Of a stretch of DNA of 64,000 nucleotides, positions 4,071 to 27,386 are shown piece by piece. Position 1 is the first letter of the stretch. Each line of letters begins with the position of its first letter. The notes under the pieces are model-generated. The model did not search any database, was not told where the DNA came from, and was given only the letters and a program-made list of their open reading frames with translations. The DNA is taken from positions 19,273-83,272 of the forward strand of contig JBAXTZ010000002.1 in the NCBI GenBank assembly GCA_037129925.1, written 5' to 3'. This DNA comes from Bacillota bacterium (GTDB taxonomy: Bacteria > Bacillota > Negativicutes > JBAXTZ01). Both the position numbers and the translations under genes were made by a program.

Positions 4071-4088
4071 TTACTGCAACAAAAAAAT

Positions 4089-10320: not shown

Positions 10321-10384
10321 GCGTAATGAGTGTGGTCGTTGGCGGAGTTTTTCGTTTAAATCGCAAGAAGAACAGGGGAGAGAA

Positions 10385-12514
10385 ATGAACCAACAACCAC
10401 AACCAATCGACAGCGGTCTCGCTGCATTAATCTTAGTTGCCGGATATCACGGTATCGCCGTCGATGCCGGCAAGATCATCCACGAACAGGCGGCGCTGGG
10501 TGAGCGGTTTGATAACCGCAAATTATTGCTCGCGGCGAAGAAAACCGGCTTCAAGGCTAAAACTACTTCGGCGCGTTATGAAAAACTGCCGCAACTGACT
10601 GCGCCGTATATTGCCGAATATAACGGCGAATATATTGTCATCCTCAAAGCCGAAACGGATACCATTGTCTATTTCCGACCCGGATTAACCCAGCCGCTGA
10701 CCATCCCCCGCGACGAATTCGTCCTGCACTGGAACGGCAGATTGATATTGCTCAAACCAATGCTGAAAAACACCGCCGATAAATTCGGTTTCGGCTGGTT
10801 CATCCGCCAGATTATGGAATACAAACGCCATCTGATCGAAGTTATGCTTGCGATGCTGTTCATACAGCTTATGGGGTTGGTGACACCGATCATCACTCAG
10901 GTGGTAATCGATAAGGTGCTGACCCATAACGGGCTGACTACGCTGAATGCATTGATGTTCGGGTTGCTGATCCTAGTCGTCGGTGAAAGCTTCCTCGGTT
11001 CAGCGAAAACCTATCTGTTCGTACATACCGCGAGCAGAATTGATGCGGTACTCGGCGCCAATTTATTCAAACGGCTGATGTCCTTACCGTTAAGATACTT
11101 TGAAATTCGCCGTGCCGGAGATACGGTAGCCAGAGTAAGAGAAATTGAAAACATCCGCCAGTTTCTGACCGGTACGCCGTTATCCACTTTACTTGATGTT
11201 TGTTTCATTTTTGTCTATGTTGCGGTAATGTTTTTCTATAGCGGCGCCTTAACTTGGATGGTTTTAGGCTCATTGCCGCTGTTTGCAATTCTCTCGGGAC
11301 TGGTGACGCCGTTATACAAATCCCGGCTCGAAGAAAAGTTCAACCGCGGCGCTGATAACCAGTCCTATCTGGTTGAAGCGGTAAACGGCATCCAGACAAT
11401 CAAGTCCTTCGCGCTCGAACCGCAGATTCAAAAACGCTGGGACAGTTGTCTTGCCGCCTATATCAAAGCCGGATTCAAGACCGCCAATCTCGCGGGGATT
11501 GCCGGCAGCATCGGCCAAGCCATCCAGAAAACTGCTGACATCGCGGTACTGTGGTATGGCGCAATGCTGGTAATCGACGGCAAACTGACCGTCGGGCAGT
11601 TAATCGCCTTCCGAATGTTATCCTCGCACGTCAGCGGTCCGGTATTAAGATTAGTGCAACTATGGCAGGAATTCCAGCAGGCCGGAGTCTCCTTGAGCCG
11701 CATCGGCGATATCTTCGAAGTCAAACCGGAAAACAACCTTGTCAGCGCACAAACGGCAATGCCAAGTGTTAAAGGCGCGATAACTTTTGACAAAGTGCGG
11801 TTTCGCTACCGCTTCGACGGCCCGGAAATCATCCGCAGCATGAGCTTTGAAATCCAACCCGGCGAAGTCGTCGGCTTTGTCGGCAGGAGCGGTAGCGGAA
11901 AAAGCACCGTCGCCAAGTTAATCCAGCGATTGTACGCGCCCGAATCGGGGCGGATACTGGTCGACGGCGCCGATATCGCCGCAACCGATACCAGTTGGTT
12001 AAGACGCAACATCGGTGTAGTGCTGCAGGAAAACTTTTTATTCAACGGCTCAGTCAGAGACAACATCGCCATTCATAACCCGGCGGCCAGTATCGAACAG
12101 GTAATGGAAGTTGCCAACCTCGCCGGAGCGCATGAATTTATTCTGGAAATGCCTGAAGCCTACGATACCCAGGTCGGCGAAAAAGGCACGGCACTCTCCG
12201 GTGGGCAACGGCAAAGAATTGCGATAGCCAGAGCGCTGCTTAACAACCCCAAAGTATTGATACTCGATGAAGCCACCTCGGCGCTTGATTACGAATCCGA
12301 ACGGATTATTCAGGAAAACCTGAAAAACATCTGCAAAGGAAGAACTGTGATAATCATCGCCCACCGGTTATCGACCTTGAAAGACGCCACCAAGATCATC
12401 ACCGTTGAAAAAGGCGAAATTGCTGAGTCCGGCACCCCGGAAGAATTGTATAACGCCAAAGGAATCTTCTGGCACCTGGCAAGCCAGCAGCGGGGTAGTT
12501 ATGAGATTGTTTAA
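10385..12514 (+). CDS. hlyB: Type I secretion ABC transporter (HlyB family, C39-like domain)
   Basis: N-terminal DSGLAAL C39-like domain without catalytic Cys; TM domain; GRSGSGKST, LSGGQRQR, ILDEATSALD; GGGGAG RBS before ATG 10385. Confidence 0.93.
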   Translation: MNQQPQPIDSGLAALILVAGYHGIAVDAGKIIHEQAALGERFDNRKLLLAAKKTGFKAKTTSARYEKLPQLTAPYIAEYNGEYIVILKAETDTIVYFRPGLTQPLTIPRDEFVLHWNGRLILLKPMLKNTADKFGFGWFIRQIMEYKRHLIEVMLAMLFIQLMGLVTPIITQVVIDKVLTHNGLTTLNALMFGLLILVVGESFLGSAKTYLFVHTASRIDAVLGANLFKRLMSLPLRYFEIRRAGDTVARVREIENIRQFLTGTPLSTLLDVCFIFVYVAVMFFYSGALTWMVLGSLPLFAILSGLVTPLYKSRLEEKFNRGADNQSYLVEAVNGIQTIKSFALEPQIQKRWDSCLAAYIKAGFKTANLAGIAGSIGQAIQKTADIAVLWYGAMLVIDGKLTVGQLIAFRMLSSHVSGPVLRLVQLWQEFQQAGVSLSRIGDIFEVKPENNLVSAQTAMPSVKGAITFDKVRFRYRFDGPEIIRSMSFEIQPGEVVGFVGRSGSGKSTVAKLIQRLYAPESGRILVDGADIAATDTSWLRRNIGVVLQENFLFNGSVRDNIAIHNPAASIEQVMEVANLAGAHEFILEMPEAYDTQVGEKGTALSGGQRQRIAIARALLNNPKVLILDEATSALDYESERIIQENLKNICKGRTVIIIAHRLSTLKDATKIITVEKGEIAESGTPEELYNAKGIFWHLASQQRGSYEIV

Positions 12515-12660: not shown

Positions 12661-13986
12661 ATGAGTTTTTTTACAAAATATCTAAAAATCAGCAGCAAAG
12701 ACATCGAACACGAGTTTCTCCCCGATGCGCTGGAAATCAAAGAAAGCCCGCCGTCACCGGCGGGACGGATAATCATCTGGGGAATCTGCATAATTCTGAC
12801 AATAACCCTGATTTGGTCCTGCATCGCGAAAATCGACGAAATCGCCGTAGCCCGTGGTAAACTCATTCCCGACGGCAAGATCAAAGTCATCCAGTCCGAA
12901 TATGAAGGCGTGATTGTAGCCATCAACGTCGTCGAAGGTCAAAAAGTCAAAGCCGGACAAACCTTGCTCGAACTCGATCCGCTGACTGCTAAGACCGAAT
13001 ACGAAAAAGTCCATGATTCACTGCAAATCGCCAAAGCCGAGAAGCAACAATTGCAGAATGAACTAAGCGGCAAACCGAACGCCGCGAATGGATTGCCGGA
13101 AGAATTGCGAAGTTTGTATGCTAATCTCAGGCAAGCCCGCGAATTGCAATATCAGACCAAGCGCGAAACCTACGCCCATAATATGGAAGATGCCAAAAAC
13201 GGACAGCAAAGCGCCGAGTGGTCGCTGAAAGATTCGAAGCGCCATTATGAAATAATTCTGGTCGAAGAAGCCGACCTCAGATACCTCGTCAAAGAAGGCG
13301 GATTATCCAGAGAAAACTACAACCGCAAAGAACGGGAACTGTTCAGCGCCGAGAATGATCTGGAAACCAAACGCGAAGCGGTGGAACAGCAACACGAAAA
13401 ATATCTCGGCGCGGCAAAAAGCTATGAACTGGTGGAATATGAACGCCAAGCCGAATTGCTGAATGCCACTGCCGAGAAAGAAAAACAAATTATCGAATTA
13501 ACGTCTCAATTTATCAAAGCCAAAAAAGCGCTGGAAATGACCAAGATGACATCGCCGGTGGATGGCGAAGTACACGGACTGGCAGCAACGACCATCGGCG
13601 GTGTGGTTAAACCGGCGGAAGTGCTGATGACCATTGTGCCGGAGAATACCCCGCTGATTATCGAAGCGACCGCAGATAACAAGGACATCGGCTTTATTGA
13701 CGTAAACTACCCGGTGGAAATAAAGTTCGATACCTATCCGTTCCAGCGTTACGGCGTGGTTAAAGGCAAAGTAACCTTCGTCAGCCCGGATGCTATCGAA
13801 GATGAAAAACTCGGGCCGGTGTACAAAATCAAGGTGGCGCTGGATTTGAAGACGATACCCAGAACGATAGAAATCTACCCCGGTATGGCAGGAACAGTAG
13901 AAATCAAGACCAACGAAAAGCGGGTAATCGACTTCTTCCTCGATCCGCTGATCAAGTATGCGGATGAGAGTTTGGGGTTAAGGTAG
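12661..13986 (+). CDS. hlyD: Type I secretion membrane fusion protein (HlyD family)
   Basis: EFLPDALEI..PPSP, single TM, lipoyl-like halves, coiled coil, PFQRYG, PGM...EIKT. Confidence 0.93.
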   Translation: MSFFTKYLKISSKDIEHEFLPDALEIKESPPSPAGRIIIWGICIILTITLIWSCIAKIDEIAVARGKLIPDGKIKVIQSEYEGVIVAINVVEGQKVKAGQTLLELDPLTAKTEYEKVHDSLQIAKAEKQQLQNELSGKPNAANGLPEELRSLYANLRQARELQYQTKRETYAHNMEDAKNGQQSAEWSLKDSKRHYEIILVEEADLRYLVKEGGLSRENYNRKERELFSAENDLETKREAVEQQHEKYLGAAKSYELVEYERQAELLNATAEKEKQIIELTSQFIKAKKALEMTKMTSPVDGEVHGLAATTIGGVVKPAEVLMTIVPENTPLIIEATADNKDIGFIDVNYPVEIKFDTYPFQRYGVVKGKVTFVSPDAIEDEKLGPVYKIKVALDLKTIPRTIEIYPGMAGTVEIKTNEKRVIDFFLDPLIKYADESLGLR

Positions 13987-14036: not shown

Positions 14037-15209
14037 ATGAAAACACTAACAACAAGACTATTGATCGTGGCAATTCTACTCTGCAGCATAGTTTGTGCAG
14101 CGGCACAACCACAGTATGATTTTGCGCAAAACAACAACATGTCGGAATATTACGCCACACAGTACGACAACAGCGGAACCGCCTGGTTACGGGGCGTGGA
14201 GTTAAATGGCATGTTTGACAAAAACAGCCAGAATTACGGAGTAACAGTAATACAACCGTTTTTGGACACAAAAAACGGGTTAACGCATGTGCCATTCTGG
14301 CAGGCAAGTTATACGCGCACAGCCGGTGCAAACTTAAATAGCGCGTTAGATACGGTTAATATCGGTATCGGCTACCGTTTCGTTTCTGCAGTGCGCAGCA
14401 ACATGTACGGCGTGAATTTATTTTACGATAATTGCCTGGACTATTTGCCGGTTGCCGGATTAAATCAGGTTTCGCTGCAACGAATCGGCGCCGGACTGGA
14501 ATATTTTGTCGGGCCGGTCGAAGCGCGTATGAACGGATACTTAGGTTTAGGAAATAACACCCAGACCGCAAGCAACGGCGATATTGTCTCAACCAAAGTA
14601 GTCAACGGATTGGATGGCGCTATCAATACCGATTTTTCTTTCTGGAACGCACCCTGGTTGAAAATAGGTGTGAGCGGATTTTCGAATAATGCTTCAACAA
14701 CTGGTATCACAAACGGATGCAGCGCCACCGCCGCGCTGCAATTAATGCCGCAGTTGAAAGTTGCCGTTGCACAGGATTTTATTAATAACAACACTATTGC
14801 TACAGCGACGATAAACCTGCTGGCGCTGCCGCAACCGGCGTTATTGTTTGCAGATGAATATATAAATGCCAACGCCGAAAAAGATGCCGGATACAAAACA
14901 CTGCTGGCGGTGCAGCGAAACAACAACGTGACTGCTGACGTGAACGTAACCAGGCAAGCTGTTGTTTACCAAGGCTCGCTGGACATAACGGTGACTGATT
15001 CGGCAACCGGGTTGCCGCTTGCGGGCGTGATGGTTGTGTTTAACTCAACCTTGCAAAATACCGGCGCGGACGGTAAGGCAAGCTTCAGCAATATAGCTTA
15101 CGGAAATTATGACTATGTGATAGTCAAATCCGGATACCTATCCCAAAGCAGCAGCTGTACAATCGATTCACCGGCGAAGGTGTTGCCGGTAGCGTTGGTG
15201 GTGCAGTGA
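14037..15209 (+). CDS. Inverse autotransporter (intimin/invasin-like) beta-domain protein with one short Ig-like passenger
   Basis: Signal peptide; NIGIGYR..MYGVNLFYD..QRIGAGLEY..RMNGY barrel pattern; VQRNNNV linker; C-terminal VTDSATGLPLAGV..TGADG..GNYDYVIVKSGY domain. Confidence 0.7.
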   Translation: MKTLTTRLLIVAILLCSIVCAAAQPQYDFAQNNNMSEYYATQYDNSGTAWLRGVELNGMFDKNSQNYGVTVIQPFLDTKNGLTHVPFWQASYTRTAGANLNSALDTVNIGIGYRFVSAVRSNMYGVNLFYDNCLDYLPVAGLNQVSLQRIGAGLEYFVGPVEARMNGYLGLGNNTQTASNGDIVSTKVVNGLDGAINTDFSFWNAPWLKIGVSGFSNNASTTGITNGCSATAALQLMPQLKVAVAQDFINNNTIATATINLLALPQPALLFADEYINANAEKDAGYKTLLAVQRNNNVTADVNVTRQAVVYQGSLDITVTDSATGLPLAGVMVVFNSTLQNTGADGKASFSNIAYGNYDYVIVKSGYLSQSSSCTIDSPAKVLPVALVVQ

Positions 15210-15223: not shown

Positions 15224-15303
15224 GGGTTTAGGCGCAGGTTGTTCTGCTTCTAAACGCGAGAATTGGGAAAAATGAAATGAAGGGTGGTGGTGTTTTTGAG
15301 GGT
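15224..15303 (+). repeat. 80-bp cassette-leading element, copy 1
   Basis: 72/80 identical (manual count) to 18064-18143; contains hairpin GTTTAG-gc-GCAG-loop-CTGC-tt-CTAAAC. Confidence 0.92.
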
Positions 15304-15347
15304 ACAGACTATTAGTATAAGACAAAGTTTTTCGAGGAGGAATTCTG

Positions 15348-16475
15348 ATGACTAAAACAAAGATGTTGCGTTTTACGGCACTGTGGTTACTGATGCTATT
15401 TGTCTTTGCTTTCCAGATACAAGAGAGTAACTGTGAATTAAGCGGTAATGCTTTCGCCAGCTCTATATCTACCGGCGGGTCCAGTCAGGGATTGAATGAT
15501 GATAGTTTGTTTAATTACACGTTTGAAGCAGGTAAGAATAAACTAAAGTCAGGTGATTATGCAGGGGCTATCAATGACTTTACTGCCGCAATAAATTGTG
15601 GTGATGAAAATCAAGATTTGGCTATTGTTTTCTTGAACAGAGGTGCGGCTTATGCGCACTTAGGCAATAATTCAGCTGCTGTTGATGATTATAACAGCAT
15701 GTTGAAATTGCGCCCAAATTCGCCTGAAGCCTACACCAACAGAGGGCTTGCATATCATGAACTTGGCAAAAATGATCTCGCCATCAGCGATTTAAACGAA
15801 GCGGTACGATTAGCTCCGGGTCAATATACAGTGTACACGAACAGAGGTGTTACTTTTGGAGAGATGGGTGAATATGAAAAGGCGATTGATGATTTTAATT
15901 GCGCAATAAAACTCAAAGGTAATTACTATTATAAAGCTTATTGGGGTAGGGCTTTGGCGTACATTGGTAGTGGCAAATATGATTTAGCCTTGTCGGATTT
16001 GAACTTAATTATTGACAATAATTTCAACGATTTCGATGCTAGGTTTCTGCGTGGAGGAGTATATGTAATTAAAGGTGATTATAATCGTGGCATAAGCGCT
16101 CTGTCCGGAGTGGTCAAATATAGCAAAGATAATAAACCGGCGCTGTTTCTTAGGGGAATGACTTATATCGTAGTCGGAAATTACGATAGCGCCGTCGATG
16201 ATTTTGCTGAACTTGTTAGCCAGCATACGATAATTGGCGATGCCCCAATTAATTCCTGTCTAAAACCGATCTTTGATTGGTGTATGCCAAAGGTTTTGAA
16301 TGAACAATTCGAAAAAAACAACTCAAATGCGGAAATTATTTTCATTAGAGGGTTGGTTGAAAACATGCGCGACGAAAAGGAGAAGAGTCTGGCAGATTTG
16401 AATAACGCGGTAAAAATGAAACCTTCACTGGCGAAAAAATTGCCCTGGTGGATAAGACACGAATTGACGAACTGA
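15348..16475 (+). CDS. Exported tetratricopeptide-repeat protein (cassette 1 partner gene)
   Basis: N-terminal basic/hydrophobic signal; repeated AYxNRGxAY...AIxDxxxAIxL TPR units; GAGGAGG RBS. Confidence 0.88.
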   Translation: MTKTKMLRFTALWLLMLFVFAFQIQESNCELSGNAFASSISTGGSSQGLNDDSLFNYTFEAGKNKLKSGDYAGAINDFTAAINCGDENQDLAIVFLNRGAAYAHLGNNSAAVDDYNSMLKLRPNSPEAYTNRGLAYHELGKNDLAISDLNEAVRLAPGQYTVYTNRGVTFGEMGEYEKAIDDFNCAIKLKGNYYYKAYWGRALAYIGSGKYDLALSDLNLIIDNNFNDFDARFLRGGVYVIKGDYNRGISALSGVVKYSKDNKPALFLRGMTYIVVGNYDSAVDDFAELVSQHTIIGDAPINSCLKPIFDWCMPKVLNEQFEKNNSNAEIIFIRGLVENMRDEKEKSLADLNNAVKMKPSLAKKLPWWIRHELTN

Positions 16476-16497: not shown

Positions 16498-18093
16498 ATG
16501 ACTATTACGAGCGGTGGAAAAATTTACTCAGTAAGACCAATTGATGGAGCTATTGACACAAAAAGAACATTTGACTTTGCTATGGATGGCAATAATTGCA
16601 TACCGTATTATACGGACGAAATGCAGGATATTACACAGTTTCTTAAGGACGCTGGAATTTATAAAGGCGACGTGTTGCCCGAAGCGAAATTTACAATACT
16701 TGAGGGAGAAAATAGTTGGTTCACTGTCGGCAAAGGTGAGTATTATAACGCCGGTGTTGTGATACATGGCGAAACGGACAAGTTCAGTATTGACGCTGGG
16801 ATAGGCGTGAAGGGTGAACTGGTCACGGAATGGTTTGTTGTTCCAAAAGAGCTAAAAATTCAGGGAGTTGGAGGAGAACTCAAGATTTCCTTTCAAACTC
16901 CAATGGATATTTTGGATATCACTAATGCAATTGATTTGTCGAAATTTACACTTGTCGACACAATTTTGAAGATGGGCAATAAATATTGGAATCAAGCGAA
17001 GGAAATTGTTGACAGCTATTTCCCAAATGAAAACCCGCCACAAGTCACCAACCAATTCGAATTCCACGTTGACCCGCTTGCCGGAATCAAAAAAACTGAC
17101 GTAACTGACCCGAATTATTGGAACGGCAGTTTGCTCAATGGCGGCGGATATAACGGCACGGCTAATTTTGAAGTCAATAAAGATATTTTTGACGCAAATG
17201 GCAAGCTGAGCAACTATGTAAATAATCTGATGGCGGGAAATATTACCGGAGGTATTCGTCCAGGCAACGTTAATCCATCCGAAAATTTCTTCGGAATAAA
17301 TTACGAAATATCCGGGAATATAAACTCTTCCAGTCAGCAAGGCAAAAATATTTCGTATGTTGACCCGTTGATATTGGATTTGAACGGCGACGGTGTTCAC
17401 ATGAGCGATTTTGGCTCGAATCCCGTATTCTTCGACGCTGACAACGACGGCAGTCTGGAGCAAACCGGCTGGGTTTCAGCGCAAGATGGCATTGTCGTCA
17501 AAGACTTAAACAATAATGGTATCATCGACAACATCTCCGAGACAATGTCGGAATACTTTGGCGGGACAGCCGGTGTTGACGGTGGCACGAAGCCGTTTAA
17601 GGATGGTTTTGCGGCGTTGGCGTCTTTAGACAGCAACAAGGACGGAAAATTCGACAGCGCTGACGCTGACTGGGGTAAAGTCAAAGTCTGGGTTGACGCC
17701 AACCACGACGGCAAGACCGATGCGGGTGAGCTGAAATCGTTTGAAGAATTGAACATCAAACAGATAAATCTTGCTAATCAGGCGCAGTCCGGGGAAGTCC
17801 GCGACGGTAACGAAGTGCTGGCGCGCGGGACGTATCTGACGACTGACGGTAAGTTACAGGAAGCGTTAGCGGCTAATTTTCTGGCTAATCCGAACGGCCA
17901 TAAGTTCACCCAGAGCGGAACCGGAACGATTGTTGATACGCAGGGAAGCGGAACAATAGCGGCGGTCAAGGCTTATGTTGCCGGAGATGGCGGCGAGACG
18001 GTGGGCGTTGCGGTGAAGAAAGTCAACAACGCCACTGGCGGCGCGGTTATGACTATGGTTTTTGGGTTTAGGCGCAGGTTGGACTGCTTCTAA
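16498..18093 (+). CDS. Truncated RTX-protein cassette: unique 182-aa head plus conserved linker and self-processing module; no RTX tail or secretion signal
   Basis: GGAGG RBS; residues 183-~516 align without gaps to residues 341-~674 of the 2881-aa protein; ORF runs into the 80-bp element and stops there. Confidence 0.85.
   Translation: MTITSGGKIYSVRPIDGAIDTKRTFDFAMDGNNCIPYYTDEMQDITQFLKDAGIYKGDVLPEAKFTILEGENSWFTVGKGEYYNAGVVIHGETDKFSIDAGIGVKGELVTEWFVVPKELKIQGVGGELKISFQTPMDILDITNAIDLSKFTLVDTILKMGNKYWNQAKEIVDSYFPNENPPQVTNQFEFHVDPLAGIKKTDVTDPNYWNGSLLNGGGYNGTANFEVNKDIFDANGKLSNYVNNLMAGNITGGIRPGNVNPSENFFGINYEISGNINSSSQQGKNISYVDPLILDLNGDGVHMSDFGSNPVFFDADNDGSLEQTGWVSAQDGIVVKDLNNNGIIDNISETMSEYFGGTAGVDGGTKPFKDGFAALASLDSNKDGKFDSADADWGKVKVWVDANHDGKTDAGELKSFEELNIKQINLANQAQSGEVRDGNEVLARGTYLTTDGKLQEALAANFLANPNGHKFTQSGTGTIVDTQGSGTIAAVKAYVAGDGGETVGVAVKKVNNATGGAVMTMVFGFRRRLDCF
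17043..18046 (+). repeat. ~1.0-kb direct repeat, copy 1
   Basis: Colinear with 19760-20763 at a constant 2717-bp offset; about 22 amino-acid differences in ~334 codons (manual count). Confidence 0.95.
17362..17907 (+). other. FrpC-type self-processing module (SPM), copy 1; predicted cleavage D289-P290
   Basis: YVDPLILDLNGDG..FD.DNDG...TGWVSAQDG..V.DLNNNGIIDN..GFAAL..LDSN.D..VWVDAN.DG....EL..FEEL.I mirrors the Neisseria FrpC SPM. Confidence 0.85.
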
Positions 18094-18143
18094 ACGCGAG
18101 AATCGAGAATAATGAAATGAAAGGCGGTGGGGTTTTTGAGGGT
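18064..18143 (+). repeat. 80-bp cassette-leading element, copy 2
   Basis: 72/80 identical to 15224-15303; hairpin stem unchanged, loop changed. Confidence 0.92.
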
Positions 18144-18169
18144 GAAGAAAGTGGCAAAGCTATTGAAAA

Positions 18170-18748
18170 ATGGAGGTGAAGTTGAAAGCAATTAATATGG
18201 TCAAACAATGTTTGTCAGTAATTAAAATTAAGTATTTTGTACTTGGAATGTCTCTTTGTTTCATAGCGGGAACGTATTTGGAATTTGATTATAGCAAATA
18301 TGAGATTATCAGAAAATTCGTGGCGATATCAGCACGAATTATCCCCTTTATTTATTGTGTAGGGGAAATATCTAAAGCGCCGCTCAATCAATTGTTTGCA
18401 TCAATTATTAATATCGGTTGTCTATTTATTGCGTTGCTTACGTTTGCAAGAGCTCTGATTAATTTCGATTCAATTTATGAAAAGACATTGTCATATAACT
18501 TCAAGAAGAAAATTATCTACATGATTGGCGCGTTGATTCTCGGAACACTTATCTATACAATTTTGTTCTCTAAATCGGTTTTACTCACTCGTGATTGGAG
18601 GACGGATTATATGATTAATACGACTTTGGGCATGATACTTTATGGCGGCGCACTTTTTTATGGTGGATGGATCATTTTTTTCGACATAGCACAGAACGTG
18701 ATTATTTATACGGTTTACACAATAAGAAGATGGAGGAATAATGGCTGA
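18170..18748 (+). CDS. Hypothetical ~4-TM membrane protein (cassette 2 partner; candidate immunity protein); start may be TTG 18182
   Basis: Four hydrophobic segments, AT-rich; stop overlaps the start of the RTX gene. Confidence 0.75.
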   Translation: MEVKLKAINMVKQCLSVIKIKYFVLGMSLCFIAGTYLEFDYSKYEIIRKFVAISARIIPFIYCVGEISKAPLNQLFASIINIGCLFIALLTFARALINFDSIYEKTLSYNFKKKIIYMIGALILGTLIYTILFSKSVLLTRDWRTDYMINTTLGMILYGGALFYGGWIIFFDIAQNVIIYTVYTIRRWRNNG

Positions 18749-21700
18749 AGAACGTGTATCAAAAATAAAATGGGATGAAAAAATATGGGGTGTTTTTGGC
18801 GCACTTCAAGATGGTTTTGGAGAAGTTCTAAAGAAAAGTATTAATTCAGGTGAGCTAGATGCGCGACTTGCCAAAATCGGGATAACTGCACACTGTAAAG
18901 TGCTGGGTTCCGCGGGAGATTTTATTTCGATTTCTTCTGCGATATATAGTGGTGATCCGGATAAAATTGGCGACGCGATTTTTTCGTTCGTAGGATCTCA
19001 AATTACCAGTCCTGTAGCCGCAGCATGGTTTGCAGCGTATGCATCTAAGAATGGAATCGATCCGATCATTGGCGGCATGGTTGGAGGATATGTAGGCTCA
19101 GAAGCAGGTGCTCAATTCGGATCGCTCACTTGGCAAACTTTATGGAACGGGATTCAATCCGTAGAAGTAACGAGCGAAGGTGGCACAAACATTTTCACCC
19201 GCAAGCAGTTTCAAGAAGTACATATGCCTGGATATAAAGAGAACTATACAATTGATATGTTCAAGAGAGATTTTGGCGCGGTGAACAGCAATAACAATAA
19301 TATATTCATTGAAAACAAGAATCCGTCTGCACCGATTTCGCCAATCGACACCAACCAATATTATGTCAAATACACAGTACCCGCCAACACGCCTTGGAGT
19401 ACTATTGAAGCGCAGTGGGGTGCGGCAAATGTGCAAGGCTCCGAGAGATATGACGGTACAAAATATTATACCGGCAGCGGATATCAGGTCGCAGAGGCCG
19501 GAACCACTATCCTTATACCCTGCTCGCGCGACTATGCTAAACAGCAGGTTAATGCGAGTGGCGGTATAAATATAGCCGCAAGGATTGGAGCAGGCGGAGA
19601 TTTTTCCTGGGTGGCATCGTTGTCGAATAATATTGAAATTACCGGGAAGTTTTACGCAGACAAGACCGGTATTGATCCGAATAATGTCCAGACCGGAACA
19701 GTAATTGACGTTGTAAATAATAAAGATGCAAATATTGGTTGCTATGATCCGAAACTGGGAGTCACCAACCAATTCGAATTTCACGTTGACCCGTTAGCGG
19801 GAATCAAAAAAACTGACGTAACAGACCCGAATTATTGGAACGGCAGTTTGCTCAACGGCGGCGGATATAACGGCACGGCTAATTTTGAAGTCAATAAAGA
19901 TATTTTTGACGCAAATGGCAAGCTGAGTAACTATGTCAATAATCTGATGGCTGGTAATATAACTGGCGGTGTTAGGCCGGGCAACGTTAATACGTCAGAA
20001 AATTTCTTCGGAATAAATTACGAAATAACCGGGAATATAAACTCCTCCAGTCAGCAAGGTAAAAATATTTCATATGTTGACCCGTTGATATTGGATTTAA
20101 ATAATGACGGTGTTCACATGAGCGATTTCGGCTCGAATCCGGTTTTCTTTGATGCCGACAACGACGGTAGTCTGGAACAGACCGGCTGGGTGTCAGCGCA
20201 AGACGGTGTCGTGGTCAAGGATTTGAATAACAACGGAATAATCGATAATATCTCCGAAACAATGTCGGAATATTTCGGCGGCGTTGCAGGAACAGACGGC
20301 GGGACGAAGCCGTTCAAAGACGGATTTGCGGCGTTGAAATCGCTTGATTCTAATGGTGACAATGTTTTTGACAATAAAGATGCCGACTGGGGCAAGGTAA
20401 AAGTTTGGGTTGACGCCAACCATGACGGCAAGACCGATGCCGGGGAACTGAAATCGTTTGAAGAATTGAATATCAAACAAATCAACCTTGCCAATCAGGC
20501 ACAGTCCGGCGAGGTGCGCGACGGCAACGAGGTACTGGCGCGCGGGACGTATCTGACGACCGATGGCAAATTGCAGGAAGCGTTGGCAGCTAATTTTCTC
20601 GCCAATCCGCTCGGACATAAGTTTGAAAAGAGCGGTACCGGAACGATAATCGATACCCAGGGTGGTAACAAGATTGCTGCGGTAAAAGCCTACGTTGCCG
20701 GAGACGGCGGCGAAACGGTTGATGTGGCTGTCAAAGGTGTGAACAACGCCACCGGCGGCGCGGGTAACGACACTTTGATTGGCGACGCGACCAGCAACTG
20801 GCTGGCAGGCGGCGCGGGCAGCGATACGTTTAACGCCGGAGCCGGGGACGATGTGCTGTTGATTGACGCCGAAGACAAGCAGGAAAACATCCACGGCGGC
20901 GCCGGGATGGATACGGTAATTGCTATCGGTGACAAGGGTATTACGCTGAACATGAGCGCTGCCGAAGTGGAAATCTTTCAGGGCAACCGCGGCGATGATG
21001 TAATTGTCGGCGGCGGCAGCAGCTCGGTATTTATCGCCGGTGGCGACGGCAACGATATCCTCATTGGCGGCGCAGCCAATGACGCGATTAACGGCGAGAA
21101 CGACAACGATATGATCGACGGCGGCGCCGGAAACGACATCCTCCGCGGCGGCCGCGGCCGGGATACTATCTACGGCGGCAAAGGCGACGACTATATCGAC
21201 GGCGGTCAGGACGATGATGCGCTGTATGGCGGCGCCGGTAACGACGTATTGCGCGGCGCAGCCGGGGATGACGTTATCGACGGCGGCGACGGAACCGATA
21301 TTCTCGAACTGTCCGGCAACCTTTCTGAGTACCGGATATTGCGCACCGCTACCGGCATCTGGATCAGCGACACCGTCGCCGGACGCGACGGCACCGATTT
21401 TGTAAAAAACGTTGAAAAAGCCAACTTCAAGGACGTAAGTTTGGTAGACATCCCGTCCAATACCAGTGACGGGCTGGAAAATCCGCTGCCGGTTAAAGAT
21501 ATTATCAAGACTGACAAAGACGGCAAAGCTTTCGACCACACTACCGCGCACTACATTTCCCAAGCTCAGCTGTTGCAAAATGATGTGGATTGGCAAAACG
21601 ACAAGCTGACGATTACCGAAGTAACCGACGCCGTCGGCGGAACGGTAAAATTAACCGAAGCCGGGGATATCCTGTTCACCCCTGACGCCAGTTTCAACGG

Positions 21701-24700
21701 CGTTATGAGCTTCAAATACACCGTCAAAGACGCCAAAGGCAATATTGCCGCGCAGGTAATTAGCGGCGCTGGCGACAAAGCGACGATGCGAGCGGCAGTG
21801 TACCTGAAAACACCGGAACTGCCGGTTGATCCGCTGGTTACCGATCAGTGGTACCTGAACGATGCCAATATCCTGCCGGTCTGGAAAGACTATACCGGTA
21901 AAGGAATACGCATCGGCCAGTTTGAACCGGGCGGTTCCTACGCCACGACCAAAGAAATATTTGATTACCGCCACTACGATTTGAAAAACAATGTCGATGC
22001 CGACTGGCTGGCAGGTAATACCGCCGGTAACATCGCCGGAGAAGGCGCAGACGGCAAATTCAGCAACCATGCGACATTGGTAGCCGGAGTAATGGTCGCG
22101 GAAAACAACGGCCAGGGTGGTGTAGGTGTCGCCTATGATGCCAAAATTGGCGGACATTTTATCGATGCCAAAACAATCGGCGTCGATCTTGCCAAAATGA
22201 AAAACTACGATGTCGTCAACAACAGCTGGGGCATTACGCCTAGTTTTGCCGGATCATTTTTGAATGACGGTTCAATCGTCGTACCATATGCCGGAGCGGC
22301 AATTGAAGGCCGGGGCGGACTGGGAACAGTAATTGTCACATCGGGCGGAAACGACTGCGAGCAAGGCGGTAACGCCAACTACAGTAACGCAACTAATATT
22401 CGTACTGCTATAGCCATCGGTGCGGTGAACGCCAACGCCGATCTTAGCACCCTGCAAGTCGGCGACAAACCGTTCTCCAATCCCGGCGCTAACCTGCTGG
22501 TATCGGCGCCCGGTTCGAATATCACTTCGACTTCGCGGATGATAACGACCGACGACGGCTCGACTTTTGGCGCGGATAACGCCGTATCCCAGGGTACCAG
22601 TTTCGCCGCACCGATAATCTCCGGTATCGTCGCGCTGATGCTGCAAGCCAATCCGAAACTCGGCTACCGCGATGTTCAGGAAATTCTAGCGGTGTCAGCA
22701 CGCAAATTTGCAACAAATGATAATAATGAATGGCACGATAACAGCACCGGTAATTGGAATGGCGGCGGTATGCATTATTCTGACAATTACGGTTTCGGTA
22801 TGGTCGATGCCCGCGCGGCAGTGCGGCTGGCGGAAACCTGGACAGCGCAGCAAACCTTCGCCAACGAAGTACACGTGTTTACCGAAGCGAAAAACGTCAA
22901 CGCCGCGATTACCGACGGCAACAGCATAACCAGCTCGGTAACGCTGGCTAACTGCGATATGCGCATCGAACATGTCGAGGTCAGGGTGCACCTTACCCAT
23001 GACCGCCCGGGCGACCTGATCATCAAGTTGGTCAGGCCAGACGGCACCGAATCAATCCTGATGAACCGGCCCGGCGTGAGCGCAGCAAACTCCAACGGCG
23101 ATACCAGGTTCAATAACTCGGATGAACTGAATTTCGTATTCACAACTACCCACGACTGGGGCGAGAGCCCGGCAGGTGAGTGGAGGCTGGTGGTTACTGA
23201 TGCTGCCACCGGTAAAACCGGAATACTGAAAGACTGGGATATAACCGCCTACGGCAAATCGGGCGCTTTGACCAATGATACATACTATTACACCGACGAA
23301 TACGAAAACCTCGCCGGAACACCCGGACACAATGCGACACTGAACGATACCGACGGCGGCAACGACACCATCAACATTGCAGCGTTATCCAAAGGCGCGA
23401 TCGTTAATATCTCGACCGGCGCCGCGACAGTAGCCGGTAAAGCCCTGACCATCCAGAACCCCGGCACAATTGAAAACATCGTCGGTGGCGAAGGCAGCGA
23501 CACGCTGGTCGGCAACGCGGTCAACAACGTCCTCGCCGGTGGCCGCGGCAATGATACCCTGAGTGGCGAAGGTGGGAATGACGCGTTGTTCGGCGGCAAA
23601 GGCAACAATATCCTGATTGGCGGCAGCGAAAACGACAGCTTCATTATCGAACGCAACGACAATTGCTGCGACACCGTTGCTGATTTTGCTATCGGCGCTG
23701 ACAAACTGGTACTGTCCGGTTTTGACAAGGCAATACTTGCGACGATGACGGTTAGCCAGACCGGCGCCGATACCCGGCTGGCATTCAGTAACGGCCAGTC
23801 GATATTGTTGAAGAACATAACCGCAACAAGCTTCGGTACGACGCTTGCCAATAATCTGAATGTTTGCGTTTCGGCGGAGGGTGTTACTGTTAATGACATC
23901 CTCAACAGTGAGGCTTATGCCTTTGGAAGCGAGAAGACTGAACTAATTTCATATGATGGACTAGGTCAGCAACTACGCTTTTGGGGTGGCGGAAATACGG
24001 ACATTGTTTTTGGAACCAAAAAAAACGATGTGTTGATTGGCGGAACCGGCGACGATATTATCCACGGCGGTGACGGCGATGATGTGATTTATCTGCAGGG
24101 CGACAATCTTATGAGCAGATATAAATATACCGACGAACATGGCAAGGAGCGAATTGAGAATGCCGGAGCATACGGCGAAGCAGGAGCCGACCGGTTTGTG
24201 TTGAAAGAAGGCGGCGGCCTGCAAAATGCGATTTGGGATTTCGAAATCGGCAAAAACGGCGAGGTGATTGACGTTGTCGATTTATCGGAAATTCCCAGCG
24301 CGACCGATTTCTCCCAACTGAGCTTTTCAAAACTTACCTGTAACGAAATGATATTTACTGTGGTTTCGATCAAGACCGACCCGCTGCGCCGCAGCGTTGC
24401 TTTGCGAAATATCAGTCAGGAAGCTTTGAATGAACATCATTTCATATACCGTCCAGGCAACACTCCAGGATTGACGAATGTAACTGGCACTGATTTAGAC
24501 GATAATGATACCGACAGCAACGGAGATAGGATAATCGAAAAACGATTAGTCGGTGACGCTGGAGGCAACGTTCTCGACGGCAAAAAAGGCGCGGATATCA
24601 TGGAAGGCCGTACCGGCGACGATACCTATTATGTCGATAACAAGAACGACAAGGTTATCGAGCTTGCCAATGGCGGCTATGATACTGTCAGAACGACCAT

Positions 24701-27386
24701 CAGTCTGACTAAAGAGGAAAACGGTCTAATAATGGCTGACAACGTCGAGCAACTAGAACTGCTGGGCAAAGATAATCTTAATGCCACCGGTAATGAACTG
24801 AATAACCGCATCGTCGGCAACGACGGTAATAACATCATCGACGGCGGCGCGGGTATCGACACCATGCTCGGCGGCAAGGGGAATGATACCTATATCATCG
24901 ACAACGGTTTTGACCGGGTGTTCGAAGCCGACAGCGAAGGCATCGATACAGTACAGGCCTCGATGTCCTATACGCTCGGCGCTAACTTCGAAAACCTGAC
25001 CCTGATTGGAACCGATGCCATCAATGCGACCGGTAACGAACTTAACAATATCCTCACCGGCAACGACGGCGACAACAAACTCGACGGTCAGATTGGCGCC
25101 GACACGATGGCAGGCGGCAAAGGCAACGATATTTATTTCGTCGATAACGCTGGTGACAAAGTTGTTGAGAATGCCGGTGAAGGTACGGATACCATTATTT
25201 CGTCGGTTGATTATGTGCTGGCAAGCGATGTTGAAAATCTGGTGCTTATTGGCGCCGCGAAAACTGCGTATGGTAATGGTTTTGATAACCAAATAATTGG
25301 TAATGAACTGGATAATAGAATTCTCGGAGGGAAAGGAGATGATCAGCTTTCAGGTGGTCTGGGAAAAGATCAGTATTATTTCAGTTATGATGGCAACGAC
25401 ACTATTTATGAGAAGTACGACGCGGTCCAAGGAAACGATGAAGACGCAATAATTTTTTTGGGAAACAAAATAGATAGTATTGTTTTTTATAGGACTATAA
25501 CAGGCGATTTGATAATAACTTACAAGGACAACTATGCATCTGCATCAAATTCGATAACAGTTAAAAATCATTTTTCTAACGCTGGCGCTCAGATTGAAAA
25601 AGTACAGTTTAACGACAGTACTTTTGTCGACAAAAAATTTATCGAGGCCAATTGTGTTTACGTGGAATCTTTTACAGGAACAAGCGGTAACGATAATTTG
25701 ACAGGAACAGCGGGTAAAGATGTGTTGATTGGACAAGACGGCGCGGATATCATGGACGGGAAAGAAGGCGTCGATGTGATGATCGGTGGTAAAGGTGATG
25801 ACGTCTATTATGTCGATAACGTTGGTGATTCTGTCGGTGAAAAAACAGACGAAGGTTACGACAAGGTGTTTTCGTCGGTTAGCTATTCGATTGGAAATGG
25901 GCTTGAAGACCTTGCGCTTACAGGAACGGATGATATTAATGGCACTGGCAATTTTCTTTCCAATATTATTACCGGAAATTCCGGGAAAAACATCATTGAC
26001 GGTGGGGGAGGATATGGCGCTGATTCACTGTTTGGCTTTGCTGGAAGCGATATTTTGATCGGCGGAGACGGCAACGACCATCTTGACGGCGGAACAGGCG
26101 ATGATGAAATGCGCGGAAAAGCCGGAGATGATACTTATGTAGTCGACAGCATAAATGATAAGATTATCGAAGTTGCCAACGAGGGGAATGACTTAGTTGA
26201 GACTTTAATAAGCTATTCATTAGCTGCAAACCTAGAGGGACTAAAGCTAACAGGGTTAGGGAATATCAATGGAACGGGGAATGAACTCGACAATTATATT
26301 AACGGCAATTCAGGCGACAACACAATTGATGGCGGTATGGGTAACGACAATTTATACGGAAAAGAAGGAAACGATACTTTGATCGGCGGAGCCGCGCGCG
26401 ACTGGTTGGACGGAGGCGCTGGTGAGGATAAAATGTATGGCGGTTCCGGCAATGATTATTATCTTGTGGATAATACAGGCGATCTGGTTTTCGAAAATCA
26501 AAACGAAGGAACTGATACCGTCTTCTCGTCGGTTGATTATACACTTGGGAATAATTTGGAAAATCTTCAGATCAGTGGAGACGCAAGAGTCGCTATTGGC
26601 AACGAACTGGACAATATATTGACCGGAAACAATTGCGGCAATATACTGGTTGGCGGAGCCGGAAATGATACTCTGATCGGTGGAGATGGAGCGGACGAGA
26701 TGCGTGGCGGAACCGGGAGCGACACCTATTGGGCGGATCGAAGCGATACCGTAATAGAAAAAGCGGGAGAGGGTTATGACATAGTCGTTGCTTCTGAAAA
26801 TTATACGCTTACAGCCAATGTTGAGGAACTTCAACTGACAGCAAATTTTAACGTTGACGGTACCGGAAACGAGCTTTCGAATATGATTTATGGTAATTAT
26901 CATGACAATGTGATTGACGGACGCGACGGTGACGACAATCTTAGGGGGAACGAAGGGAATGACACACTCATTGGAGGGAAAGGACACGACCTTTTAGTGG
27001 GTGGAGCAGATAACGATACATATATTTTCAACATAGGCGATGGGCAGGATTCAGTTGCAGAATACTCAGGAACTAATGACCTTGCTAAATTTGGCGCTAC
27101 TGATTTACAGTTGATGATTTCTAGAGTTAATGAAAATTTGATAATATCAACAGGGGGAACAACTGACAAAGTTGAGATATGGTATTGGTACCAAGGCGAC
27201 GGCAACAAAATTGAGACAATCGAAGCCGGTAACGGAAAACGGTTATTATCAACGCAAATTGACAGCCTTATGGCGGCTATGGTTCAGCTGCAAGCACAAA
27301 AAGGCATGTCCTGGAATGAGTTGATTAGTTCTGCGCCGAATGAGACGCAGACGGTACTCAATCAGTTCTGGACGGAAAAGAAGTAA
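18741..27386 (+). CDS. Giant T1SS-secreted RTX protein: glycine-zipper head, SPM, RTX repeats, cadherin-like domain, S8 subtilase plus P-domain, RTX tail
   Basis: Many GGxGxDxLx nonapeptides; NHATLVAG, GTSFAAP and EHVEVRVHLTH..PGDL..GEW.L motifs; RTX-type C-terminal secretion region. Confidence 0.93.
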   Translation: MAEERVSKIKWDEKIWGVFGALQDGFGEVLKKSINSGELDARLAKIGITAHCKVLGSAGDFISISSAIYSGDPDKIGDAIFSFVGSQITSPVAAAWFAAYASKNGIDPIIGGMVGGYVGSEAGAQFGSLTWQTLWNGIQSVEVTSEGGTNIFTRKQFQEVHMPGYKENYTIDMFKRDFGAVNSNNNNIFIENKNPSAPISPIDTNQYYVKYTVPANTPWSTIEAQWGAANVQGSERYDGTKYYTGSGYQVAEAGTTILIPCSRDYAKQQVNASGGINIAARIGAGGDFSWVASLSNNIEITGKFYADKTGIDPNNVQTGTVIDVVNNKDANIGCYDPKLGVTNQFEFHVDPLAGIKKTDVTDPNYWNGSLLNGGGYNGTANFEVNKDIFDANGKLSNYVNNLMAGNITGGVRPGNVNTSENFFGINYEITGNINSSSQQGKNISYVDPLILDLNNDGVHMSDFGSNPVFFDADNDGSLEQTGWVSAQDGVVVKDLNNNGIIDNISETMSEYFGGVAGTDGGTKPFKDGFAALKSLDSNGDNVFDNKDADWGKVKVWVDANHDGKTDAGELKSFEELNIKQINLANQAQSGEVRDGNEVLARGTYLTTDGKLQEALAANFLANPLGHKFEKSGTGTIIDTQGGNKIAAVKAYVAGDGGETVDVAVKGVNNATGGAGNDTLIGDATSNWLAGGAGSDTFNAGAGDDVLLIDAEDKQENIHGGAGMDTVIAIGDKGITLNMSAAEVEIFQGNRGDDVIVGGGSSSVFIAGGDGNDILIGGAANDAINGENDNDMIDGGAGNDILRGGRGRDTIYGGKGDDYIDGGQDDDALYGGAGNDVLRGAAGDDVIDGGDGTDILELSGNLSEYRILRTATGIWISDTVAGRDGTDFVKNVEKANFKDVSLVDIPSNTSDGLENPLPVKDIIKTDKDGKAFDHTTAHYISQAQLLQNDVDWQNDKLTITEVTDAVGGTVKLTEAGDILFTPDASFNGVMSFKYTVKDAKGNIAAQVISGAGDKATMRAAVYLKTPELPVDPLVTDQWYLNDANILPVWKDYTGKGIRIGQFEPGGSYATTKEIFDYRHYDLKNNVDADWLAGNTAGNIAGEGADGKFSNHATLVAGVMVAENNGQGGVGVAYDAKIGGHFIDAKTIGVDLAKMKNYDVVNNSWGITPSFAGSFLNDGSIVVPYAGAAIEGRGGLGTVIVTSGGNDCEQGGNANYSNATNIRTAIAIGAVNANADLSTLQVGDKPFSNPGANLLVSAPGSNITSTSRMITTDDGSTFGADNAVSQGTSFAAPIISGIVALMLQANPKLGYRDVQEILAVSARKFATNDNNEWHDNSTGNWNGGGMHYSDNYGFGMVDARAAVRLAETWTAQQTFANEVHVFTEAKNVNAAITDGNSITSSVTLANCDMRIEHVEVRVHLTHDRPGDLIIKLVRPDGTESILMNRPGVSAANSNGDTRFNNSDELNFVFTTTHDWGESPAGEWRLVVTDAATGKTGILKDWDITAYGKSGALTNDTYYYTDEYENLAGTPGHNATLNDTDGGNDTINIAALSKGAIVNISTGAATVAGKALTIQNPGTIENIVGGEGSDTLVGNAVNNVLAGGRGNDTLSGEGGNDALFGGKGNNILIGGSENDSFIIERNDNCCDTVADFAIGADKLVLSGFDKAILATMTVSQTGADTRLAFSNGQSILLKNITATSFGTTLANNLNVCVSAEGVTVNDILNSEAYAFGSEKTELISYDGLGQQLRFWGGGNTDIVFGTKKNDVLIGGTGDDIIHGGDGDDVIYLQGDNLMSRYKYTDEHGKERIENAGAYGEAGADRFVLKEGGGLQNAIWDFEIGKNGEVIDVVDLSEIPSATDFSQLSFSKLTCNEMIFTVVSIKTDPLRRSVALRNISQEALNEHHFIYRPGNTPGLTNVTGTDLDDNDTDSNGDRIIEKRLVGDAGGNVLDGKKGADIMEGRTGDDTYYVDNKNDKVIELANGGYDTVRTTISLTKEENGLIMADNVEQLELLGKDNLNATGNELNNRIVGNDGNNIIDGGAGIDTMLGGKGNDTYIIDNGFDRVFEADSEGIDTVQASMSYTLGANFENLTLIGTDAINATGNELNNILTGNDGDNKLDGQIGADTMAGGKGNDIYFVDNAGDKVVENAGEGTDTIISSVDYVLASDVENLVLIGAAKTAYGNGFDNQIIGNELDNRILGGKGDDQLSGGLGKDQYYFSYDGNDTIYEKYDAVQGNDEDAIIFLGNKIDSIVFYRTITGDLIITYKDNYASASNSITVKNHFSNAGAQIEKVQFNDSTFVDKKFIEANCVYVESFTGTSGNDNLTGTAGKDVLIGQDGADIMDGKEGVDVMIGGKGDDVYYVDNVGDSVGEKTDEGYDKVFSSVSYSIGNGLEDLALTGTDDINGTGNFLSNIITGNSGKNIIDGGGGYGADSLFGFAGSDILIGGDGNDHLDGGTGDDEMRGKAGDDTYVVDSINDKIIEVANEGNDLVETLISYSLAANLEGLKLTGLGNINGTGNELDNYINGNSGDNTIDGGMGNDNLYGKEGNDTLIGGAARDWLDGGAGEDKMYGGSGNDYYLVDNTGDLVFENQNEGTDTVFSSVDYTLGNNLENLQISGDARVAIGNELDNILTGNNCGNILVGGAGNDTLIGGDGADEMRGGTGSDTYWADRSDTVIEKAGEGYDIVVASENYTLTANVEELQLTANFNVDGTGNELSNMIYGNYHDNVIDGRDGDDNLRGNEGNDTLIGGKGHDLLVGGADNDTYIFNIGDGQDSVAEYSGTNDLAKFGATDLQLMISRVNENLIISTGGTTDKVEIWYWYQGDGNKIETIEAGNGKRLLSTQIDSLMAAMVQLQAQKGMSWNELISSAPNETQTVLNQFWTEKK
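19760..20763 (+). repeat. ~1.0-kb direct repeat, copy 2
   Basis: Colinear with 17043-18046. Confidence 0.95.
20079..20624 (+). other. FrpC-type self-processing module (SPM), copy 2; predicted cleavage D447-P448
   Basis: YVDPLILDLNNDG and the same downstream Ca-binding motifs as copy 1. Confidence 0.85.

Follow-up and report, generated by a model that had tools for sequence, protein, structure and literature searches.

A freshwater member of the Negativicutes, represented by a metagenome-assembled genome (MAG), carries on contig JBAXTZ010000002.1 a gene for a 192-amino-acid membrane protein and, directly downstream, a gene for a 2881-amino-acid RTX protein. We analysed these two genes within a stretch of 64,000 nucleotides (the window) together with related loci in other genomes. 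Synteny in six of six homologous loci, co-variation and co-folding support the two as a cognate pair, and we infer from these patterns that they probably encode a type I-secreted polymorphic effector, in which a membrane-active head is clipped from the N-terminus of the RTX protein, and an inner-membrane immunity protein. A preliminary description of the locus had proposed a pore-forming toxin with its immunity protein; the pairing has held up, but neither product matched a known toxin or immunity family, and to the proposal that the head makes a pore we give slightly less than even chances.

The head, residues 1–175 of the RTX protein, has glycines at positions 111, 112, 115, 116, 119, 123 and 127, and among these G111/115/119/123/127, the zipper seen in the preliminary description, are the sole run of five glycines with a period of four in the 2881 residues. 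Taken alone, this zipper is only mildly unusual against chance: when residues 1–175 were shuffled 20000 times such a run arose in 73, and when the entire protein was shuffled 2000 times it arose in 214. An alignment of six homologous heads from three bacterial classes has seven invariant columns (G56, D72, G111, G115, G119, G123 and G127); because all five zipper glycines are thus conserved across heads, we count the zipper as real. Residues 1–135 contain 14.1% Gly, 11.9% Ala and 10.4% Ser, against 13.9, 8.1 and 5.7% in the whole protein. AlphaFold modelled the head, at low confidence (mean predicted local distance difference test, pLDDT, 47.8), as an all-helical domain of five helices spanning approximately residues 10–140. 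A phmmer search with residues 1–342 against 1.84 billion representatives gave no match at E ≤ 0.001, but the query itself was also unmatched and the result is evidence neither way, the family being either uncommon or missing from the library.

Homologous heads were found in a congener (genome G002; 30% identity, E = 1e-13), at a second locus of the window's own genome (G000; profile E = 3.2e-6), and in Pandoraea eparura (E = 1.9e-13), Pandoraea anapnoica (1e-11) and a gammaproteobacterial MAG (2e-13); the last three came from loci of a genome collection that bear the self-processing module described below, a set of at least 593 relatives of which 78 were kept. Single-sequence searches of the own genome returned no paralogue and it was a two-sequence profile that recovered the second locus. 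Its glycine-zipper gene is broken over contig ends (the end of G000:C35, and G000:C16) and is bridged by a protein from another assembly (P0003), the full form of which has 837 amino acids and no enzyme domain. All six homologous heads have, directly upstream and on the same strand, an open reading frame (ORF) of 186–212 amino acids with three to five hydrophobic segments. These upstream ORFs share a low yet measurable similarity (25% over 136 amino acids, E = 6e-6; for the MAG, profile E = 0.019), and in P. anapnoica (L083, 2183–3282) two tandem paralogous partner genes, encoding 167 and 192 amino acids, stand before the glycine-zipper head. Two P. commovens entries in the protein database, of 147 and 193 amino acids, come close to these in length.

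A three-head profile, applied to longer proteins, had 2 matches out of 8000 candidates. With a head profile, class-wide matches were obtained in 43 of 401 genomes; besides the own genome and the congener all were weak, covered profile positions of about 95–175 and lay mostly in ORFs of 330–470 amino acids. They were rejected as homologues: the one that was inspected, in G359, is an ORF of esterase-like character that contains a Gly-rich motif, and the rest were taken as false positives unopened. In the gammaproteobacterial MAG (L096, 3355–9716) the glycine-zipper RTX gene lies in two overlapping frames, 3355–4833 and 4791–9716, which reflect a frameshift or an assembly error; a 611-amino-acid ORF upstream, with an Asp-Pro motif of its own, resembles another orphan of the kind considered below.

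The gene of the 192-amino-acid protein ends, as had been noted, inside the RTX gene: its AAT AAT GGC TGA lies over ATG GCT GAA, an overlap of 8 nucleotides with the RTX start codon (ATG at 18741), and GGAGG stands just 5' of this ATG. A gene call in another assembly (P0001) places its start at the alternative TTG at 18182. The gene was rightly described as AT-rich (34.0% GC versus 44.6% for the whole window). 'Four transmembrane segments' is fair shorthand for its product, but the number varies from four to five: five segments reach a Kyte–Doolittle mean over 19 residues (KD19) of at least 1.6 here (centres at approximately 24, 55–59, 79–93, 122–131 and 162–170), and two Negativicutes homologues have four each. 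The protein has no lipobox and its AlphaFold model is all-helical, at low confidence (pLDDT 45.0). In diderm envelopes the expected location of a protein of four to five hydrophobic helices without a lipobox is the inner membrane and not the cell surface.

No family could be assigned to this protein by Pfam and NCBIfam scans, which gave non-significant matches only; a PDB profile search gave nothing and a word-indexed search with the protein alone gave 1 match among 152 candidates, its own copy in another assembly. A seven-member profile of the membrane proteins had 5 matches among 4906 candidates, all annotated 'hypothetical protein'. A resemblance to Colicin_im indicated by a language-model search (rank 16, a cluster 62% Colicin_im, score 0.91, 187 of 256 features) was rejected on profile testing: the Colicin_im profile (PF03857) matched none of these genes in five genomes and nothing in the own genome or the congener, and such matches as it had in the five genomes lay elsewhere than these genes and were all below the cut-off.

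Co-folding of the head with the 192-amino-acid protein, a check that the preliminary description had itself put forward, gave a score of 0.61, the best of three controls reaching 0.00, with at least 60% agreement in contacts over three runs. Among solved complexes 116 of 157 attain the corresponding mark, against 2 of 215 among mismatched pairs, counts that are rough as our own alignments were the input. The predicted interface brings head residues 75–106 and 113–129, which include the zipper helix, against residues 91–175 of the membrane protein, whose pLDDT in the complex is at least 77. As a model, the co-fold supports binding of the head by its partner.

The part of the RTX protein that follows the head indicates how the latter might be released. 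Residues 448–612 match the FrpC-type self-processing module of structure 6SJW, the first residue of the solved chain, a proline, standing opposite Pro448; because the match starts at Pro448 and is preceded by Asp447, the bond Asp447-Pro448 is the predicted site of a Ca2+-triggered cleavage. The junction DP[LI]xLDL is present in seven of seven head-bearing ORFs of the own genome and congener. Homology to the module, an Asp-Pro at its N-terminal edge, and RTX repeats together with type I secretion genes are all found here and ally the protein with the 'clip-and-link' RTX proteins of the FrpC type. For FrpC, passages in two reports describe a module that folds in calcium, cuts its Asp-Pro bond and frees an N-terminal fragment, the new C-terminal aspartate of which can link to lysine (PMC7078468; PMC5472700).

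By this homology an N-terminal fragment of 447 amino acids, with the head as its tip, is predicted to be cut off outside the cell. It consists of the helical glycine-zipper domain, a LysM-like stretch and a linker. The LysM-like region aligns with true LysM domains of three homologues (from Pandoraea and the Gammaproteobacteria) that pass the Pfam cut-off, the window's own copy having no Pfam match; linker residues 343–447 are common to the RTX protein and to the 531-amino-acid orphan upstream. The C-terminal product of 2434 amino acids that such a cut leaves would be a secreted protease of very large size in its own right. Pfam matches in this carrier part are 18 HemolysinCabind repeats, Cadherin_5 (930–1005), Peptidase_S8 (1074–1330), P_proprotein (1409–1502) and HCBP_related, and its C-terminus is, by eye, like that of the 837-amino-acid paralogue. 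The cadherin-like domain and the subtilase S8 with its proprotein-convertase P-domain (residues 930–1502) occupy window positions 21500–23300.

The same module carries a variety of other heads. It is present in 13 of 401 Negativicutes genomes, in 23 genes, and starts with Asp-Pro in all of these but one, a Ser-Pro gene (L060, G090:C46, at about 7777) that could be a variant without cleavage. Heads N-terminal to the bond measure 95–447 amino acids and are mostly unrelated, with 11 of 253 pairs alike and several of those by the linker only; they include heads of strong hydrophobicity or with many small-residue zippers, and a class-3 lipase. The lipase head (L059, G127:C2, 4915–7463; Lipase_3/Mbeg1-like, with GHSLGG) lies before the module, and upstream of its gene is a 540-amino-acid protein with multiple transmembrane segments and DUF805 and DUF2271 parts. 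A same-strand upstream ORF with at least two hydrophobic segments, at a gap of −8 to 229 nucleotides, accompanies 20 of the 23 module genes, against a baseline, by the same rule, of 409 out of 2832 genes (14.4%) in the own genome; the binomial tail of 1.8e-14 is too strong, related genes not being independent of one another. Three genes depart from the rule: the 531-amino-acid ORF of the window, which has a TPR gene upstream, a gene preceded by a 117-amino-acid ORF with a single hydrophobic segment, and the gene with the weakest match to the module, next to which lies an ORF without any such segment. These partners range from 84 to 540 amino acids; RDD, Rce1-like/CPBP and DUF805 domains occur among them and most have no family. 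CPBP/Abi proteins are tied to bacteriocin self-immunity, a connection that Kjos and colleagues are said to have made in 2010. One CPBP gene has been described within a bacteriocin locus, in passages of PMC8692603.

Heads and partners co-vary. In the Negativicutes set all six partner pairs that are alike at BLASTP E ≤ 1e-3 also have alike heads, and in a second, independent set of 56 mostly proteobacterial loci this again holds for six out of six, with 81 of 1540 head pairs alike overall (hypergeometric 1.8e-8, also too strong since kin are not independent). The type of partner follows the type of head as well: in the 56-locus set, heads of at most 300 amino acids with at least two hydrophobic segments have an upstream ORF with multiple transmembrane segments in eight of eight cases, other short heads in one of seven (7/5005, approximately 0.0014), and at several loci of Pseudomonas and Variovorax where the head is long the upstream ORF is lipoprotein-like, as in the case of FrpD. 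Variable heads on a conserved module and orphan cassettes that keep a piece of the scaffold are both features of polymorphic toxins. Since the varied heads each have their own upstream membrane protein, and orphans are also present, the pattern is that expected of toxin/immunity systems; passages in PMC3482391 and PMC11630599 associate polymorphic cassettes, orphan copies and head-specific partners with kin-discriminating antibacterial systems.

An orphan of this kind precedes the pair. 'Cassette 1' of the preliminary description is an orphan cassette, cut short, whose head is of another kind and whose candidate partner is a TPR protein. Its 531-amino-acid ORF comprises a non-hydrophobic head of about 180 residues, the pre-module linker, Asp289-Pro290 and the module, and is without RTX repeats or a secretion signal, its homology to the RTX gene stopping where the RTX repeats begin. 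Nucleotides 17043–18046 and 19760–20763 are 83.4% identical, and from about residue 182 the ORF has 93% amino acid identity to RTX residues 343–676 (nonsynonymous divergence, dN, 0.060; synonymous divergence, dS, 1.08; 335 codons). Because the protein is conserved at 93% and the DNA at 83%, and given these dN and dS values, it is an old, selected copy from a diverged gene and not a fresh duplication. Two copies of an 85-nucleotide repeat, 88% identical and the only two in the genome, bracket the TPR gene and the 531-amino-acid ORF; the second encodes the last codons and stop of the orphan, and the repeat looks like a cassette leader or border. The TPR gene follows copy 1 in the same place as the membrane-protein gene follows copy 2, and the TPR protein may be the partner of the orphan head.

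Comparable arrangements were found elsewhere. A truncated head-and-module ORF with its own upstream membrane gene lies before the full gene in G000:C35 (350 amino acids) and G002:C11 (304 amino acids), and in G002:C38 (248 amino acids) such an ORF flanks the longer gene on its opposite side; the gammaproteobacterial MAG shows a comparable layout. By analogy with the orphans of contact-dependent growth inhibition (CDI) and Rhs systems, those described here may arise by displacement and be able to recombine back. In the congener, a motif of about 45 nucleotides, unlike the leader of the window, lies 75–180 nucleotides upstream of four different partner genes. At another of its loci (L003, G002:C40, 196–351), a 51-amino-acid ORF nearly identical to the start of the window's ABC transporter stands upstream of a membrane-partner gene and resembles what would be left of a degraded transporter gene.

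On these data we propose the following scheme for the pair. The HlyB/HlyD-type system encoded upstream would export the RTX protein; extracellular calcium would fold the repeats and the module, Asp447-Pro448 would be cut, and the 447-residue fragment of zipper domain, LysM-like part and linker would be set free. The LysM-like part may help this fragment to find a cell wall, and the glycine-zipper helices would then enter and disturb the membrane of neighbouring bacteria. The 192-amino-acid protein, made first from the overlapping frame, would bind the zipper helices in the inner membrane and so protect the producer and its kin.

Several observations weigh against this scheme. The head is only moderately hydrophobic; its top KD19 mean is 1.24, with none at 1.6, and in calling it hydrophobic the preliminary description overstated its character. 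The window head had no Pfam or NCBIfam match at any scanned threshold; one of the six heads matched Gly-zipper_Omp (PF13488) at E = 0.082, below the curated cut-off, and Rick_17kDa_Anti (PF05433) gave E = 3.6 for the congener head and no match for that of the window. In the PDB the head profile (alignment positions 86–135) had a single match, to a stretch rich in Gly within the phage tape-measure protein 9ki1_g (E = 0.0011), which probably reflects the compositional likeness of membrane-inserting glycine-rich helices. In these scans and searches neither head nor membrane protein showed sequence similarity to any proven toxin/immunity family. The single-chain AlphaFold models are poor, at the pLDDT values given above, and even in the co-fold the head has a pLDDT of just 58–60; moreover, as the co-fold controls were unrelated natural proteins and not known membrane proteins, the packing of hydrophobic helices against each other may have been favoured. 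Alike heads without a detectably similar partner account for 75 of 81 alike pairs in the 56-locus set and 5 of 11 in the Negativicutes. A released fragment would also have to pass the outer membrane of its target. Finally, since the carrier has a subtilase and a cadherin-like domain, the RTX protein may have another main job, with the head as a tether.

This last possibility can be put more fully as an alternative, although we hold it improbable: the head would act as a stopper that keeps a giant protease or adhesin attached until calcium-dependent cleavage frees the 2434-residue part, while the membrane protein holds or chaperones the head. Large LapA-type RTX adhesins are retained by N-terminal modules, and the enzyme and adhesion domains of the carrier, the translational coupling of the two genes and the predicted interface would all suit such a role. 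The same head and partner, however, are found on the 837-amino-acid protein, which argues against a dependence of the head on this particular cargo; conservation would be expected of a generic holder, whereas the partners are highly diverse and head-specific; and enzymatic heads such as the lipase, LysM regions and truncated orphans that have no carrier are unlike a stopper. The main rival, itself unlikely, is a surface retention or adhesion pair of the FrpC/FrpD type, with the clipped fragment staying on the producer via the upstream product and its C-terminal Asp linking another surface. The gene order of partner, head and module is the same, binding is predicted, the LysM-like and cadherin-like parts could attach, and the model is a known one: FrpD, encoded upstream in the same operon, holds FrpC's N-terminal fragment, and adhesion has been proposed in passages of the reports on this pair (PMC5472700; PMC5233953; PMC7078468). 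FrpD acts at the surface, however, and the partner described here, with its four to five hydrophobic helices, is expected in the inner membrane; retention also leaves unexplained the many unrelated heads, a lipase among them, the co-varying partners and the orphan cassettes. The adhesion role of FrpC/FrpD is in any case unproven, a toxin/immunity reading having been put forward for the same proteins in a passage of PMC6759196.

A head directed at eukaryotic or fungal cells, with a membrane protein that merely spares the producer's own membrane before export, is in our estimation very unlikely. LysM also binds chitin-type glycans, grazers are plentiful around a freshwater Negativicutes host, and as type I substrates bypass the periplasm it is conceivable that a cell would guard against its own cytoplasmic pool; RTX proteins also include cytolysins, as set out in parts of PMC3034196. 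Nothing in the data gave a sign of a eukaryotic target, however, and the polymorphic cassettes, orphans and head-specific partners are the pattern of antibacterial kin discrimination in the passages cited above (PMC3482391, PMC11630599).

The pair shares features with several known systems. Pore-forming colicins likewise combine a helical, inserting toxin domain with an inner-membrane immunity protein of four helices and about 170–190 amino acids; unlike them, the present pair gave no Colicin_im match, and PDB and Pfam profile searches detected no similarity of the head to colicin pore domains. The Cdz proteins of Caulobacter crescentus are small bacteriocin-like peptides with N-terminal leaders and export by a peptidase-type ABC transporter. 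In place of a small double-glycine-leader peptide and an active C39 ABC transporter, the window has a head within a 2881-amino-acid RTX protein of C-terminal-signal architecture, an HlyB-type transporter with D-S-G at the catalytic position, and release by predicted self-cleavage; CdzC/CdzD with CdzI are similar in being type I-secreted glycine-zipper killers of neighbours with an immunity gene (PMC5380434, in part). CDI ionophore toxins are described in passages of PMC11630599 as glycine-zipper helical bundles neutralised by small membrane CdiI proteins, with divergence to 20–39% identity. The likeness, which rests on their description and not on a comparison of sequences, extends to a glycine-zipper helical membrane domain, a small membrane immunity protein predicted to bind the helices, divergent cognate pairs and modular cassettes; there, however, the toxin is at the C-terminus of type V CdiA after VENN, immunity is encoded downstream and CdiI is a two-helix hairpin (PMC11630599).

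FrpC/FrpD of Neisseria meningitidis and ApxIVA follow the same plan: an RTX protein exported by type I secretion, in which the N-terminal domain varies and is followed by a module that begins at Asp-Pro, and a small partner gene upstream (PMC5472700, in passages). The FrpD partner binds the N-terminal domain, as is predicted here by co-folding. The differences are that the present partner is a multi-helix membrane protein and does not have the make-up of FrpD, a beta-rich outer-membrane lipoprotein with a signal peptide and lipobox; that polymorphic cassettes and orphans are found; that the host belongs to the Negativicutes; and that the window head is unrelated in sequence, the module being the sole match to FrpC. 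Passages of PMC5472700 report no virulence defect in FrpC mutants alongside the adhesion model. Bayer-Santos et al. (2019) described a type IV secretion system antibacterial effector homologous to RTX N-terminal domains, with an immunity protein of FrpD fold, and advanced the hypothesis that FrpC and FrpD are an effector of type I secretion and its immunity protein (PMC6759196, in the passages concerned). In their Smlt3024/Smlt3025 pair from Stenotrophomonas maltophilia an experimentally antibacterial effector akin to RTX N-terminal domains has a cognate immunity protein, as is proposed for our pair; it differs, by description and not by a comparison of sequences, in being stand-alone, type IV-delivered and provided with an FrpD-like beta-rich lipoprotein for immunity (PMC6759196).

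For module-released antibacterial heads with upstream immunity genes, that hypothesis was the only precedent found in the literature searched, subscription-only papers and supplements being outside its scope. The passages on RTX and N-terminal toxins in a 2012 survey of polymorphic toxins mention no such system, and part of a 2025 paper places Min-Wnt toxin domains N-terminal to RTX repeats. Known already are the module, the RTX context, glycine-zipper toxins with membrane immunity (CDI, Cdz) and the idea of FrpC/FrpD as effectors; the cassette organisation (an upstream, head-specific, co-varying partner, and orphans), the membrane-protein partners and this head family were not found in print and are apparently new.

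The locus extends along one strand (Table 1), its cassettes running in the order leader, TPR gene, first head with module (truncated), leader, membrane-protein gene, second head with module and RTX. The ABC transporter scored 902 bits against TIGR01846 (type_I_sec_HlyB; cut-off 725). At its N-terminus D-S-G stands in the place of the catalytic Cys of active C39 peptidases. The 390-amino-acid protein encoded after the HlyD gene starts with a signal-like stretch and combines part of an inverse-autotransporter beta-domain with a CarboxypepD_reg-like domain. Downstream of the RTX gene are rplS and then housekeeping genes. A promoter and terminator scan was at background (18 promoter-like sites versus 15.0 expected). 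DNA of the locus was found again, at identity of at least 99%, in lake and freshwater metagenome runs of several studies; among the listed holders there were no RNA datasets, which says nothing on expression. A joint from 18139 to 15300 in three metagenome runs was rejected as a rearrangement, being explained by the 85-nucleotide repeat together with the left edge of the query.

Table 1. Features of the RTX locus, in window positions except for the last row, which refers to loci of the congener.
Feature	Position	Strand	Basis or remark
HlyB-type type I secretion ABC transporter, N-terminal C39-like domain	10319..12514	+	Pfam ABC_membrane, ABC_tran, Peptidase_C39
HlyD-family type I secretion adaptor	12661..13986	+	Pfam HlyD_3; TIGR01843 330 bits, cut-off 209
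390-amino-acid inverse-autotransporter-like outer-membrane protein	14037..15209	+	between hlyD and cassettes
85-nucleotide leader repeat, copy 1, before TPR gene	15224..15308	+	direct repeat
TPR protein with N-terminal hydrophobic signal-like stretch; candidate partner of orphan head	15348..16475	+	Pfam TPR families
531-amino-acid ORF (truncated orphan cassette)	16498..18093	+	
85-nucleotide leader repeat, copy 2, before membrane-protein gene	18064..18148	+	direct repeat
192-amino-acid membrane protein; candidate immunity protein/partner	18170..18748	+	ORF and hydropathy
2881-amino-acid RTX protein	18741..27386	+	ORF list
Helical glycine-zipper head domain, residues 1–175 of RTX protein	18741..19265	+	zipper G111–G127 at 19071–19121
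Remainder of predicted released fragment, residues 176–446: LysM-like region and pre-module linker	19266..20078	+	
Asp447-Pro448, predicted scissile bond	20079..20084	+	alignment to 6SJW and motif
FrpC-type self-processing module, residues 448 to about 615	20082..20585	+	6sjw_A E 5.4e-30, 6sjx_A E 1.5e-29
Carrier part with blocks of RTX repeats, a cadherin-like domain, an S8 subtilase and its P-domain, and the C-terminal end	20763..27386	+	Pfam
Leader copies of about 45 nucleotides in congener G002	L025 2680–2722, 4758–4800; L058 2746–2790, 4564–4608		

The locus and its relatives give the pattern predicted by the antibacterial hypothesis, with swappable heads, co-varying partners, orphans, and membrane partners that go with hydrophobic heads, and they provide a concrete small pair in the 175-amino-acid head and the 192-amino-acid membrane protein. 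We therefore put forward tentatively, and at somewhat less than even chances, that RTX proteins with an FrpC-type module are as a class, of at least 593 relatives, a type I-secreted polymorphic toxin system. In such a system calcium-triggered self-cleavage at Asp-Pro would be the means of release, and possibly of covalent targeting, for interchangeable N-terminal toxin heads; an immunity gene would stand before each head, its product being a membrane protein where the head is membrane-active and otherwise a lipoprotein or periplasmic protein; and old cassettes would be displaced by new ones and persist upstream as orphans. The function of FrpC/FrpD and ApxIVA would then have been misread as adhesion or virulence. 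If this is true, a polymorphic toxin system would be added to type I secretion, one to set beside CDI, Rhs and type VI secretion system effectors and different from these in its N-terminal toxin, upstream immunity gene and calcium release switch, while the pair described here would found a new family of glycine-zipper membrane toxins and a new family of membrane immunity proteins.

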